This document shows positions 4,775 to 44,607 of a stretch of DNA of 64,000 nucleotides, one piece after another. The DNA is from Pelagibacteraceae bacterium AG-313-A04 (lineage in GTDB: Bacteria > Pseudomonadota > Alphaproteobacteria > Pelagibacterales > Pelagibacteraceae), in the NCBI GenBank assembly GCA_003284275.1, contig QBVU01000005.1, positions 955 through 64,954 of the forward strand, read 5' to 3'. Below the pieces are notes generated by a model. That model was not told the DNA's origin. It was given only the letters and a program-made list of their open reading frames with translations, and ran no database searches. Within the stretch, counting starts at the first letter, position 1. Each line of letters begins with the position of its first letter. Position numbers and translations under genes: made by a program.

Positions 4775-4919
4775 CCCCATCTGTCTATGTACCTGAGAGA
4801 TTTAATCCTTCGGTGAGGCCAAAGCCTGCTTTCCAGAGTTATTACGGTAACGGTCCTTTTGCCTGAGAGTTTCCGGGGTGGTTGCTCCTTCGGCGCCAAA
4901 TTTTGGTCTCTCCCGTTAC
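4775..4919 (-). ncRNA. Tandem glycine riboswitch (aptamer 1 ~4847-4919, aptamer 2 ~4775-4838)
   Basis: Minus strand has two units with glycine-aptamer hallmarks, GGAGAGA..CGCCGAAGGAGCAA..AAACTCTCAGGCAAAAGGAC and CTCTGGAAAG..CACCGAAGG..TCTCTCAGGT..GACAGA, directly upstream of gcvT. Confidence 0.95.
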
Positions 4920-4963
4920 AAGTGGACTTTCATCGAAAAGACCCAAAATGTCAAATATAATTA

Positions 4964-41672: not shown

Positions 41673-41702
41673 TTGACAAAATCCTAAATTTCTTGCTATA
41701 TA
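41673..41702 (+). promoter_or_regulatory. Putative sigma70 promoter of the metY leader
   Basis: TTGACA (41673-78) and TGcTATATA (41694-41702) just upstream of the SAM-II aptamer. Confidence 0.6.
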
Positions 41703-41708
41703 TTGTTT

Positions 41709-41767
41709 AGCGCCGAGTTAAGACAACTTGCGGGCGCTTAATAAATCCAGCTAAAGCGTTTAAGTCT
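41709..41767 (+). ncRNA. SAM-II (SAM_alpha) riboswitch aptamer, variant
   Basis: P1 AGCGCC/GGCGCT, loop GAGTTA..TTGC, 3' AAAT..GCTAAA pseudoknot strand; upstream of metY. Confidence 0.82.
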
Positions 41768-41771
41768 CATG

Positions 41772-41800
41772 ACCACCGCTTTAGTCGGTGGTTTTTTTTT
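41772..41800 (+). terminator. Riboswitch-controlled intrinsic terminator
   Basis: ACCACCG-ctttagt-CGGTGGT plus T-tract; CGCTTTAG is complementary to the aptamer 3' end CTAAAGCG (antiterminator). Confidence 0.88.
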
Positions 41801-41820
41801 GGAATAATCTAAAAATTTAA

Positions 41821-41875
41821 CCGGGTATTTGAACCATATTGTACACCTGGCATATGCCGAAGTACTAAAAAGGAG
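41821..41875 (+). ncRNA. SAM-V riboswitch aptamer
   Basis: GGGT-ATTTGAAC..ATTGTAC-ACCT, short hairpin GGCATATGCC, AAGTACTAAAA followed by SD AGGAG. Confidence 0.85.
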
Positions 41876-41878
41876 AAG

Positions 41879-41932
41879 ATGAACAGAATTTTAATTCGTT
41901 CATTCTTCTCCAAAAAGACGGAGAGAAAATGA
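41879..41932 (+). other. Candidate uORF1 (MNRILIRSFFSKKTERK) within a long hairpin
   Basis: ATG directly after the SAM-V SD (AGGAGAAG-ATG); its stop overlaps the next ATG (ATGA). Confidence 0.45.
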
Positions 41933-41976
41933 GCGAAACAATAAGAGAAACAATAAGGGGGAAAATCAATGGCTGA
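41929..41976 (+). other. Candidate uORF2 (MSETIRETIRGKING)
   Basis: GGAGAG SD-like; 11-nt direct repeat GAAACAATAAG x2; stop overlaps the metY start (ATGGCTGA). Confidence 0.45.
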
Positions 41977-43261
41977 TTTTAAACATCCGGAAACTATTGC
42001 TTTACATGGTGGTGATTACAGAAGTGATCCTGCAACTACAGCAGTGGCAGTTCCGATTTATCAAACAACTTCATACCAATTTAAAAATGCGGAAACAGCT
42101 GCAAATTTATTTGGGTTGAAAGAATTTGGTAATATTTACACAAGAATAATGAACCCAACATGTGATGTGTTAGAAAAAAGAGTAGCAGCACTTGAAGGCG
42201 GTGTAGCAGCATGTACGGTTGGTTCAGGTCAAGCAGCAACTGCGATGTGTATTCAAAACTTAGCGCAAGCTGGGGATAATATCGTTGCTTCAACTGACTT
42301 GTACGGTGGTACAGTAAACTTATTCAAAAATACTTTAAGACAGCAAGGTATTGAAGTAAGATTTGCAGATCCTGCAGATCCAAAAAACTTTGAAAAGTTA
42401 ACTGATGATAAAACAAGAGCTTACTACGGTGAGTCTTGTCCAAATCCTTACCTTCGTGTTTTTCCAATTAAAGAAGTTGCAGATATCGGTAGACCAAAAG
42501 GTATTCCTTTAATTATCGATAACACTGCTTCACCGGTAATTTGCAAACCTTTAGCTCATGGAGCTGCAATCGTTATGCACTCGTTGACTAAATATATTGG
42601 CGGTCACGGTACTTCAATTGGCGGAATAGTTGTTGATGGTGGAAATTTTGATTGGACTAAAAATCGAAAAAGACAACCACTGCTAAATGAACCAGACCAA
42701 AGTTACGGTGGAGCTGTTTGGATTGATGCTGTTCCTCAATTAACAGGGGCTAACATTCCATTTGTAATAAGATTAAGAGTGGTTCTGTTGAGAGATACCG
42801 GAGCACCACTTGCTCCTTTTAATGCTTGGCAAATTATCCAAGGATTAGAAACTGTTGGTCTTAGAATGAAACAGCACTGCTCTAATGCAGAAAAAGTTGT
42901 TACATTTTTAGAAACCCAGAAAAAAGTTCAAAATGTAATCTATCCTACAAATCATCAGGGTGAGATTAAAGAAAGAGCTAAAAAATACATGCAGGGTGGA
43001 TATGGTTCTTTAGTTGGTATGGACGTTGGCACAAAAGAAAATGGTGCTAAGTTCATCGACAACTTAAAGATGCTTTACCACGTTGCTAATATTGGTGATG
43101 CTAGAAGTTTAGCAATTCATCCGGCTACGACAACTCATAGTCAATTAAACGAGAAGGAATTATTAGCTGCAGGTGTAACACCAGGATATGTAAGACTTTC
43201 AATTGGTATTGAGCATCCAGACGATATCATTGCTGACATTAAGCAAGCGTTAGCTGCTTAG
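41969..43261 (+). CDS. metY: O-acetylhomoserine sulfhydrylase
   Basis: PIYQTTSY, GNIYTRIMNPT, HSLTKYIGGHG PLP lysine, ANIGDARSLAIHPATTTH; SAM riboswitch leader. Confidence 0.93.
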   Translation: MADFKHPETIALHGGDYRSDPATTAVAVPIYQTTSYQFKNAETAANLFGLKEFGNIYTRIMNPTCDVLEKRVAALEGGVAACTVGSGQAATAMCIQNLAQAGDNIVASTDLYGGTVNLFKNTLRQQGIEVRFADPADPKNFEKLTDDKTRAYYGESCPNPYLRVFPIKEVADIGRPKGIPLIIDNTASPVICKPLAHGAAIVMHSLTKYIGGHGTSIGGIVVDGGNFDWTKNRKRQPLLNEPDQSYGGAVWIDAVPQLTGANIPFVIRLRVVLLRDTGAPLAPFNAWQIIQGLETVGLRMKQHCSNAEKVVTFLETQKKVQNVIYPTNHQGEIKERAKKYMQGGYGSLVGMDVGTKENGAKFIDNLKMLYHVANIGDARSLAIHPATTTHSQLNEKELLAAGVTPGYVRLSIGIEHPDDIIADIKQALAA

Positions 43262-43304: not shown

Positions 43305-43673
43305 ATGATCAAACAAATTAAATCATCAGACATAAAAGAATTTATAACTAATAATCCAAAAACTGTTTTACTTGATGTCAGGACAGAGAATGAATGGAAC
43401 ACGGTTGGCAAACCCGATACAAAAGATCTTGGCATTAAATCTTTCTTCATAACTATTTCACAAGATCCAAGTTTTCTAGACAATGTGAAACAAAATATTG
43501 ATAAAGAAGAACAAGTGTTAGTAATGTGTGCAGCCGGGGGAAGGTCAATTATTGCTGCTAATCTTTTATCCAATGAAGGCTACAATACTTTAAATGTCTC
43601 TGATGGTTTTAGTGGTAATGGTCAAGATCCTGGTTGGAAGAATTTAGGATTACCTTCTATTATAGATAGTTGA
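43305..43673 (+). CDS. Rhodanese-like sulfurtransferase domain protein
   Basis: LLDVRT..EW..VG.P, MCAAGGRS active-site loop, GW...GLP. Confidence 0.88.
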   Translation: MIKQIKSSDIKEFITNNPKTVLLDVRTENEWNTVGKPDTKDLGIKSFFITISQDPSFLDNVKQNIDKEEQVLVMCAAGGRSIIAANLLSNEGYNTLNVSDGFSGNGQDPGWKNLGLPSIIDS

Positions 43674-44078
43674 TTTTTTAGCTATATCTTCAATAAGGGA
43701 TGTTTTTTTTATTTTAGCTTTTATTGAAACAGCAATCTCTTTTGGATATTTTTTTACTGTTTCTGATGTCTTTTTCTTTAGTGCAGTATTGGTCAATGAT
43801 ATTTGTTTTTTTACAATTGTGCAAAATTCAGACTTTGTTCTTTCAATAGACGAAATACAAGTTTCTTGCTTTTTTTCAGGATTTGCACTTTCCGCATATG
43901 CAACAGCGTGCTCTAAAGGAGTTTTTCCTGTTTGTTTTTTAACTCCATAACTAACTGCTGAATTAAGAGAAGACTGTAATATTTTTCCGTTAGATGTGCT
44001 AGTGCCGAGTAATGCTAAAGATTCAGCGCATCCATTAAGTAAGAAAATCGTTGATAATAAAACCAATATTTTTTTCAT
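43650..44078 (-). CDS. Hypothetical lipoprotein (paralog A)
   Basis: MKKILVLLSTIFLLNGC lipobox (start placed at ATG 44078); clear similarity to the neighbouring ORF. Confidence 0.75.
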   Translation of the reverse strand: MKKILVLLSTIFLLNGCAESLALLGTSTSNGKILQSSLNSAVSYGVKKQTGKTPLEHAVAYAESANPEKKQETCISSIERTKSEFCTIVKKQISLTNTALKKKTSETVKKYPKEIAVSIKAKIKKTSLIEDIAKKSTIYNRR

Positions 44079-44147
44079 GTTTGAAGTTTGTTTTAATTGG
44101 TTCATATCTGCTTCATCTTTAATTAAAAGTTAATTTTAGGATAATAA

Positions 44148-44176
44148 ATTTTATTAACACAACCCATGGTTGTCAA
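44148..44176 (-). promoter_or_regulatory. Sigma70 promoter with palindromic operator-like site
   Basis: TTGACA-17nt-TAAAAT; perfect ACAACC-N3-GGTTGT at 44159-44173. Confidence 0.6.
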
Positions 44177-44214
44177 GATCTTTAGATTGGTATACTGATT
44201 TTGTTTTGGAATTG

Positions 44215-44607
44215 TTAATCTAAGTGCTTAATTTTAGATTTTTTATTTATATTAAGCTGTAGTGATGAGGTAAGGTCTTTTATAGAATTTTCTTTTGATT
44301 TCGCTAAAATTTTAAATTTAGTTGATTTTAATTGTTTTTTTAATAAAGCGCAAATTTCTGAGTTAGTTTTTTCAACAAATGATAAACAAGGTTCCTTTTT
44401 TTTCTCAGGATTTTTTTCCTCTGCGTATGCAATGGCATGTCCAATGGGAGTTTTTCCAGTTTGTTTCTTTACTCCGTAGCTAATTACTGAATTAAAAGAG
44501 GATTGAACGATCTTTCCGTTTGAGGCGCCTGTACCTAGTAAAGCAACTGACTCGGCGCAACCGTTCAATAAGAATAACGTGATCAATAGACCTAATATTT
44601 TTCTCAT
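44215..44607 (-). CDS. Hypothetical lipoprotein (paralog B)
   Basis: MRKILGLLITLFLLNGC lipobox; SD AAAGGGAG; shares CAES.ALLGT..SNGKI.QSS and SYGVKKQTGKTP..HA.AYAE with paralog A. Confidence 0.78.
   Translation of the reverse strand: MRKILGLLITLFLLNGCAESVALLGTGASNGKIVQSSFNSVISYGVKKQTGKTPIGHAIAYAEEKNPEKKKEPCLSFVEKTNSEICALLKKQLKSTKFKILAKSKENSIKDLTSSLQLNINKKSKIKHLD

Follow-up and report, generated by a model that had tools for sequence, protein, structure and literature searches.

SAM binding by SAM-V aptamers forms a two-base-pair helix, P2a, with the purines at their 3′ end, according to the model in the relevant passages of PMC6061858; that paper demonstrates selective SAM binding for two SAM-V representatives other than the one considered here. 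Parts of PMC2704228, PMC6061858, PMC11508383 and PMC9481103 describe the class as directly occluding the Shine-Dalgarno (SD) sequence of its gene. The published alignment ends just past the purine tail (PMC2704228, supplement), and the 52-nt SAM-V RNA of bhmT is published (supplement, Table S1). The anti-SD/anti-anti-SD logic of the thiM riboswitch is established (passages of PMC2018614), and a partly masked SD of the downstream gene is the usual setting for translational coupling (passages of PMC8601185).

We analysed a window of 64,000 nucleotides of DNA from SAR11 (Pelagibacteraceae), marine bacteria that are abundant, in which a tandem of SAM-II-like aptamer, terminator and SAM-V precedes metY. 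The SAM-V element is a true member of its class within a real, conserved architecture, and the platform behind it has the predicted form of a thiM-like anti-SD/anti-anti-SD arrangement, likely joined to a coupling cistron. On computational evidence we hold it probable that SAM-V controls metY in two steps: a swap of one strand between a decoy and the ribosome-binding site (RBS) at SD2/AUG2, then translation of a mini-ORF and re-initiation at metY.

Table 1 Features of the metY leader, in window coordinates
Feature	Position	Strand	Basis or remark
SAM-II-like aptamer, the leading one of the tandem	41700..41775	+	Rfam SAM_alpha, 20.1 bits, E 0.031, cut-off 36
Intrinsic terminator-like hairpin and U run, between the two aptamers	41771..41801	+	Terminator scan
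SAM-V aptamer	41814..41878	+	RF01826, 71.8 bits, gathering cut-off 41
Decoy arm GGAGAAGAUGAAC (SD1 and AUG1 of the preliminary description), 5′ strand of the ON hairpin	41872..41884	+	Folds; AUG and frame unconserved
Anti-RBS strand GUUCAU-U-CUUCUCC	41895..41911	+	Two partners: decoy arm (ON) or SD2/AUG2 (OFF)
uORF1, 17 codons, judged a by-product of the decoy arm	41879..41932	+	Comparison of start and frame
SD2 GGAGAG and AUG2, predicted switch target; opens the bhmT or metE-like gene in relatives	41920..41931	+	
uORF2, 15-codon mini-ORF MSETIRETIRGKING, likely coupling cistron with the metY SD inside	41929..41976	+	Stop within the metY start
metY initiation region: SD3 AAGGGGG (41955-61), weak hairpin AAAAUCA (41962-68)/UGAUUUU (41974-80)	41955..41985	+	
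metY, O-acetylhomoserine aminocarboxypropyltransferase, 430 aa	41969..43261	+	TIGR01326, 562 bits, cut-off 495

The SAM-II-like aptamer scores below the Rfam cut-off. It is homologous, in pattern and position, to the unit found 5′ of the bhmT SAM-V at four loci of relatives (L158, L159, L162 and L169). The terminator scan gives two overlapping sites between the aptamers, against 0.2 ± 0.5 in shuffled sequences. Both elements were missing from the preliminary description of this DNA, as was the alternative fold discussed below. The complementarity of RF01826 that makes P2a (nt 14-15 against the 3′ purines) is present as CC 41834-35 and GG 41872-73; following the model in passages of PMC6061858, P2a would thus join C41834-C41835 to G41872-G41873. 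The folds and the switch of this leader are model predictions, and SAM binding by the window RNA is putative. Genes downstream of SAM-V are methionine or sulfur genes: metY in the window, and bhmT, metE-like, metF-like or osmC genes in relatives. No Rfam family exceeds its cut-off in the relay, the segment between SAM-V and metY.

A promoter scan of the leader passed no site; TTGACA followed by TG-n-TATATA occurs at 41673-41704, just 5′ of the SAM-II-like aptamer, and RNA contigs start near 41704. In four RNA runs contigs cover the leader from about that position, one of them spanning 41720-41972, and attest to presence rather than to ends, strand or level. Part of the window stretch is present in 18 of the 19 listed sequencing runs. 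Elsewhere in the window lie a glycine riboswitch aptamer (4841-4925, minus strand, 69.4 bits) and, at 43650-44607 on the minus strand, two adjacent similar ORFs, one of 151 and one of 130 aa, whose N-termini (LLNGCAES) look like those of lipoproteins and which probably arose by tandem duplication.

The AGGAG closing SAM-V (41871-75) lies 94 nt 5′ of the metY ATG at 41969. Direct occlusion supposes a start within about 10 nt, and the view of the preliminary description that SAM-V is too distant to act on metY's own RBS is supported. It also placed two small frames correctly: ATG 41879 opens 17 codons up to a TGA (41930-32) overlapping ATG 41929, which in turn opens 15 codons up to a TGA (41974-76) inside the metY start (ATGGCTGA, 8-nt overlap). 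SD2, the predicted real ribosome site, sits 48 bases 3′ of its proposed decoy copy.

For comparison, we searched 61 genomes of relatives, 55 of which had a match, and took 30 loci. Pattern scans added at least 120 further loci from genome contigs (about 180 estimated), and 30 of 38 places from 401 genomes. The pooled 179 sites reduce to 136 unique leaders, classed by distance to the first gene and not by fold: 28 are direct, a gene starting no more than 40 nt away, and 108 are long, a ratio that is not a frequency because the scan patterns demanded five A's before GGAG. The long leaders precede bhmT (54), metY in the window type (46), a metE-like (3) or a metF-like gene (1), or had no gene found (4); direct SAM-V on metY makes up 25 of the 136. 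A held-out metagenome set of 118 sites, less 9 too short and 17 duplicates, supplied 92 new leaders, 57 long and 35 direct, two of the "long" ones looking direct by eye. Among the relatives three layouts recur: SAM-V directly on metY, the window layout, and the window leader followed by a gene for a 352-aa homocysteine S-methyltransferase and then metY. We take this gene to be bhmT by its sequence similarity to the genes behind the published aptamer; it scores below the NCBIfam cut-offs. The named relatives belong to Pelagibacteraceae. One contig of a bin labelled Bdellovibrionales (L069) carries a leader and metY near-identical to SAR11 locus L013, likely a binning error. At five loci (L063, L083, L131, L142 and L180) SAM-V and the hairpin stand without a recognisable same-strand gene, apparently as orphaned switches.

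Long leaders share one order of elements: a GGAG arm, a stem, a loop, a pyrimidine strand ending in CUCC, 6-11 nt, another GGAG and an AUG. Judged from sequence, the conserved feature is a three-strand RNA unit, made of the SAM-V GGAG arm as decoy, the pyrimidine anti-RBS strand and the real SD2/AUG2. In the window, the hairpin at 41872-41911 is very stable (−19.8 kcal/mol, z = −6.7, with none of 200 shuffles as stable). The preliminary description had recognised this hairpin; its inner stem is GAAU/AUUC with a 4-nt loop, and not the longer pairing proposed. In the alternative fold at 41895-41937, its 3′ strand is predicted to pair with GGAGAG..AAAUGAGC and to bury SD2 and AUG2 (−18.7 kcal/mol). 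The two folds are predicted to be near-equal, at −19.6 (ON) against −18.7 kcal/mol (OFF).

Without SAM, the decoy arm at 41872-84 would pair with 41898-41911 and SD2 would be open. With SAM, the CC:GG pairs of P2a would capture two G's of the tail and free the anti-RBS strand, which would swap to 41920-41937 and bury SD2 and AUG2. Ribosomes starting at AUG2 would translate the 15-codon mini-ORF, melt the weak hairpin over the metY start and likely re-initiate at metY. The earlier suggestion that the hairpin is an extra switch element gains support from these predicted alternative folds and from covariation.

The balance between the folds is general. Over the long leaders the energy difference, OFF minus ON, has a mean of 0.00 kcal/mol (sd 1.67), with ON energies ranging from −13.4 to −28.4 kcal/mol. 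We grouped 97 leaders in 23 clusters, leaving out 4 without SD2, 1 without a gene and 6 with an extra stem. The two folds lie within 2 kcal/mol in 78% of the 23 cluster representatives, but in two sets of 506 chimeras the shares are 40% and 36%. The native SD2/AUG region pairs better than a foreign one in 18 of the 23 clusters, and better than shuffled tails in 20.

The pseudoknot is beyond ViennaRNA, so a folding constraint stood in for bound SAM. When the tail is blocked through the GG, the median predicted access of SD2 falls from 0.44 to 0.0005 in 104 long leaders (the 108 less 4 without a second GGAG), and at least 10-fold in 94 of them, as read with the caveat that any block of the decoy arm would favour the OFF fold. 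Blocking the A-tract only changes nothing (0.44 to 0.43). In the 48 held-out leaders with SD2 the predicted median drops from 0.69 to 0.005, and at least 10-fold in 41. In 24 of the 104, SD2 is predicted to be less than 10% open even without SAM. When the leader of the window is folded at greater length, including the metY start, a long-range helix is added, freeing the GG costs 4.8 kcal/mol and SD2 is predicted to be only 23% open; this cost is an outlier among the 46 leaders of the window type, whose median is 0.8 kcal/mol.

Outside GGAG, the anti-RBS strand covaries with both partners over the 23 clusters: with SD2, 95 of 138 pairs are Watson-Crick (83.8 ± 3.3 when permuted, p 0.0006), and with SD1, 87 are (72.2 permuted, p 0.0001), p-values that overstate the effect because the clusters are related. 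Leader L042 is an example, with GGAGAUA/UAUCUCC/GGAGAUA. By predicted folds and covariation, the unit has the form of an anti-SD/anti-anti-SD pair: one strand with two exclusive partners, in the aptamer and at the RBS. The P2a partner also separates the classes, being CC in 108/108 long leaders (56/57 held-out) versus CU in 26/28 direct ones (33/35 held-out).

The unit is not universal: a second GGAG is missing from 4 of the 108 long leaders and from 9 of the 57 held-out ones (among these 9 are the two that look direct by eye), metF- and osmC-linked leaders included. The hairpin follows SAM-V with no second GGAG before metF-like, osmC or metE-like starts in L093/L153, L227, L281 and L204. Six leaders (L037, L054, L130, L170, L173 and L174) have a second stem of about 70 nt, begun by another GGAG, which separates the anti strand from the bhmT SD. 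The predicted switch survives in all six; we rejected a two-step domino relay for them, as the extra stem loops out and the original anti strand reaches the distant SD. A C-rich loop motif (CCCUC-like, resembling an anti-SD) occurs in 18 of the 23 relay clusters, for instance in L158, L012 and L016, is absent from the short loop of the window and has no consistent partner in predicted folds. A second relay-like match in the window's own genome (G000:C1:73723-73746) was dismissed as a chance match within a coding region.

The second step concerns uORF2. An open frame with a stop on the metY start is common to all 50 unique variants (38 after a relay, 12 after a bhmT or metE-like gene), 46 stopping via AUGNCUGA and 4 via UAAUG; so do 10/10 held-out ones, 6 via UAAUG, giving 60/60 in total. 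The mini-ORF is 37-47 nt long, always ends on the metY start, and its frame-changing lengths always bring a UAAUG stop. A TGA at +5 of metY or a TAATG is found in 57/57 mini-ORF starts versus 2/27 direct starts; because MetY codons partly fix the +5 stop, what is informative is that lengths keep the frame, that UAAUG stops compensate where they do not, and that 25/27 direct starts lack the stop. The pair AAATCA..TGATTT at the metY start is present in 45/57 mini-ORF starts versus 0/27 direct ones. This short hairpin is predicted to mask metY's own SD in part, with a median of 0.39 free versus 0.69 in direct leaders; that metY keeps an SD masked no further than this counts against the two-step reading.

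The same mini-ORF is found between a bhmT or metE-like gene and metY. There it has its own SD, which behind bhmT overlaps the bhmT stop; one locus (L021) has bhmT then metY with no mini-ORF. Altogether, uORF2 has the features of a leader cistron: its own SD and start, an open frame and a conserved stop overlapping the next start. Its peptide is under weak selection at most, with 10 synonymous and 15 non-synonymous alleles versus 5/19 and 5/20 in the other frames; an ET(I/V/T)R repeat is loosely kept, and past the start there are no Met or Cys codons. From its sequence features, uORF2 is likely a natural coupling cistron for metY, and we infer that it is translated and coupled to it.

The home of the relay is in methyltransferase gene cassettes, with bhmT or a metE-like gene. 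At four loci the aptamer is identical to the published 52-nt bhmT RNA; all four have the decoy/anti/SD2 unit, and the bhmT AUG lies 72 nt after GGAG. At two loci (L061 and L152) the relay drives a gene for a 362-aa cobalamin-independent methionine synthase-like protein, below NCBIfam cut-offs, which replaces bhmT. The window mini-ORF matches the bhmT-metY spacer ORF from the third codon onward, and the window relay is nearer to metE-like leaders (0.74) than to bhmT leaders (0.57 at best). Most likely, the window form lost its cassette gene and AUG2 became fused to the mini-ORF preceding metY, the direction of this change being conjectural. In the window's own genome, which is 87% complete, neither tblastn nor PF01717 finds a bhmT or metE-like gene; there is one other PF02574 gene. 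This second member of the homocysteine S-methyltransferase family lies at G000:C8:24563-25420 on the minus strand (308-aa frame), with no SAM-V match nearby in the scans. A tree of 330 nt of metY gives no order of events because bhmT-bearing and gene-less leaders interleave in it, forcing at least 4 changes.

A longer chain, after the preliminary description, would have SAM-V gate SD1/AUG1, and translation of uORF1 melt the hairpin and couple to uORF2, then to metY. Its last link survives in uORF2, which resembles a real coupling cistron; the uORF1 link does not. An AUG or GUG follows SD1 in 46/46 window-type leaders, with the AUGA overlap in 30, and ribosomes might load co-transcriptionally before the 3′ strand is made. 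Yet 37 of the 108 long leaders have no AUG or GUG within 3-12 nt of SD1, and the fates of the others are mixed: 36 AUGA overlaps, 23 frames running past AUG2, 7 in-frame fusions, 4 early stops and 1 without AUG2. The 30 window-type overlaps among those 36 come from closely related leaders, 16 of the 46 window-type leaders break the overlap, and only 1 of 10 held-out ones retains it. Frame-shifting indels are tolerated and two leaders stop after 2 codons; in an alignment of 41 rows of the window clade, indels are confined to the loops and the stems are near-invariant, too conserved for covariation. The leader comparison that had been proposed as a check divides: conserved stop/start overlap for uORF2 and covariation in the hairpin, no conservation of the uORF1 start or frame. 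In the long fold without SAM, the predicted openness of SD1 and AUG1 is about 0-1%. According to the predictions, a free SD2 always goes with a paired SD1, and bound SAM takes the GG of SD1 into P2a. AUG1 is accounted for as a part of the decoy, because GUUCAU can pair both with the AUGAAC that follows SD1 and with the AUGAGC of AUG2. With start, frame and stop all unconserved in long and held-out leaders, we rejected uORF1 as a conserved peptide or coupler, and regard the full chain as unlikely. There is little probability, too, in a standby site after the manner of S. meliloti metA, where the riboswitch SD recruits the 30S subunit without SAM, a distant AUG2 initiates and the hairpin serves only to juxtapose them. 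Reporters demonstrated this for a SAM-II switch whose AUG2 lies 74 nt downstream (passages of PMC9373788), and it could account for the long leaders lacking a second GGAG. Here, however, SD1 is a strand of the hairpin stem, AUG2 mostly has a strong SD of its own and the anti strand covaries with SD2; mutation of SD1 is predicted to lower expression under the standby and decoy models alike.

The segment may instead be an inert scar, its upstream gene lost, SAM-V controlling nothing and metY using its own SD under the SAM-II terminator alone. The preliminary description had allowed for such a remnant, and this is partly borne out: relatives carry a bhmT or metE-like gene at this place, and the segment derives from a cassette junction; metY's own SD is also about half open in predictions. 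Nevertheless, 46 + 10 distinct gene-less leaders, with hairpins of several types, retain the aptamer, the stems, SD2 and the frame of the mini-ORF, and variation is limited to loops in genomes that are streamlined, which makes a mere scar quite improbable. We judge it very improbable that the hairpin serves as a stability element or as a site for a nuclease, with SAM-dependent access. The stem is long and stable, SAM-II binding stabilised the mRNA in S. meliloti (PMC9373788), and in run X8 the depth of contigs drops across the relay, a dip that strain divergence explains equally; but stem length and loop are unconserved, the covariation of SD2 and the energy balance go unexplained, and contigs cannot show RNA ends. 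Finally, the second step could rely on RNA only, free SD2/AUG2 pairing with the metY start region and opening SD3 with no need for mini-ORF translation. In the long fold of the window, predicted access to SD3 goes from 0.93 to 0.53 once the GG is blocked, but over the 46 leaders this is unconserved (medians 0.63 versus 0.54) and the compensating stop codons go unexplained: we give this variant very little credence.

We thus retain strand exchange at SD2/AUG2 followed by coupling through the mini-ORF as the reading of the window. Our wider proposal, for which we would claim slightly better than an even chance, is that the SAM-V "Shine-Dalgarno" is a decoy of the true site in many leaders of SAR11, among them the model bhmT tandem. 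Evolution would hold the helices about 1-2 kcal/mol apart at most, and a ligand-induced helix of 2 bp would then suffice to flip an exchange of strands over 15 bp; the module would be portable across bhmT, metE-like and osmC genes, and the bicistronic mini-ORF would retain control of metY after loss of the first gene. If this is true, the accepted mechanism of the bhmT SAM-V, a minimal switch hiding the gene's own ribosome site, needs revising: the best-studied tandem and many SAR11 leaders would use a separate, energy-balanced platform absent from the published constructs as their source describes them in part. Affinities of the bare aptamer may then not reflect the real mRNA, because those constructs omit the platform. 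Streamlined genomes would keep a regulator wired to its operon through replacement or loss of the first gene, and the unit would be a compact natural part for ligand-gated strand exchange. A hairpin or second SD after SAM-V is undescribed in the passages considered of PMC6061858, PMC11508383, PMC5069961, PMC2704228, PMC9373788, PMC9481103, PMC2018614 and PMC8601185. Our literature search for SAM-V with an anti-Shine-Dalgarno gave no match, within a scope that excludes most subscription papers; the defining paper, Poiata et al. 2009, may mention the hairpin.

Among the known systems near to the window locus is the bhmT tandem of Pelagibacter ubique, which shares the SAM-II-like aptamer, the terminator, SAM-V with a CC:GG P2a and, at the loci of identical aptamer, the decoy/anti/SD2 unit. 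As published, in the parts considered, it acts by direct SD occlusion, whereas in the window and at the bhmT loci the occluded GGAG is not beside the gene start; the constructs used for published binding work stop at GGA and so leave out the relay. The window has the mini-ORF as its first cistron and metY as the target. Direct SAM-V on metY (passages of PMC6061858) has the same aptamer class and target gene, but its start lies within about 10 nt, with no hairpin, mostly CU at P2a and no mini-ORF.

In the TPP riboswitch of E. coli thiM the ligand likewise captures part of the anti-anti-SD, and the freed anti-SD masks the SD (passages of PMC2018614). The aptamer differs, and in SAR11 the aptamer's former SD serves as anti-anti-SD and nearly copies the real RBS, often with the AUG; there, by prediction, the 2-bp helix alone tips the balance. 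The SAM-II switch of S. meliloti metA resembles the window in that its SD/AUG1 is not the start and a hairpin separates AUG1 from the used AUG2 about 70 nt downstream. As described in the same passages of PMC9373788, that hairpin is a validated terminator, AUG2 has no SD that works, and a standby site is the role proposed for the SD; the window stem, in contrast, includes SD1, lacks a U run and has a 3′ strand matching SD2. As for the mini-ORF, its counterpart is the engineered leader cistron of bicistronic designs, a short ORF that holds the second SD and ends on the target start (passages of PMC8601185): the version in the window is natural, A-rich and under riboswitch control, with likely coupling to metY.
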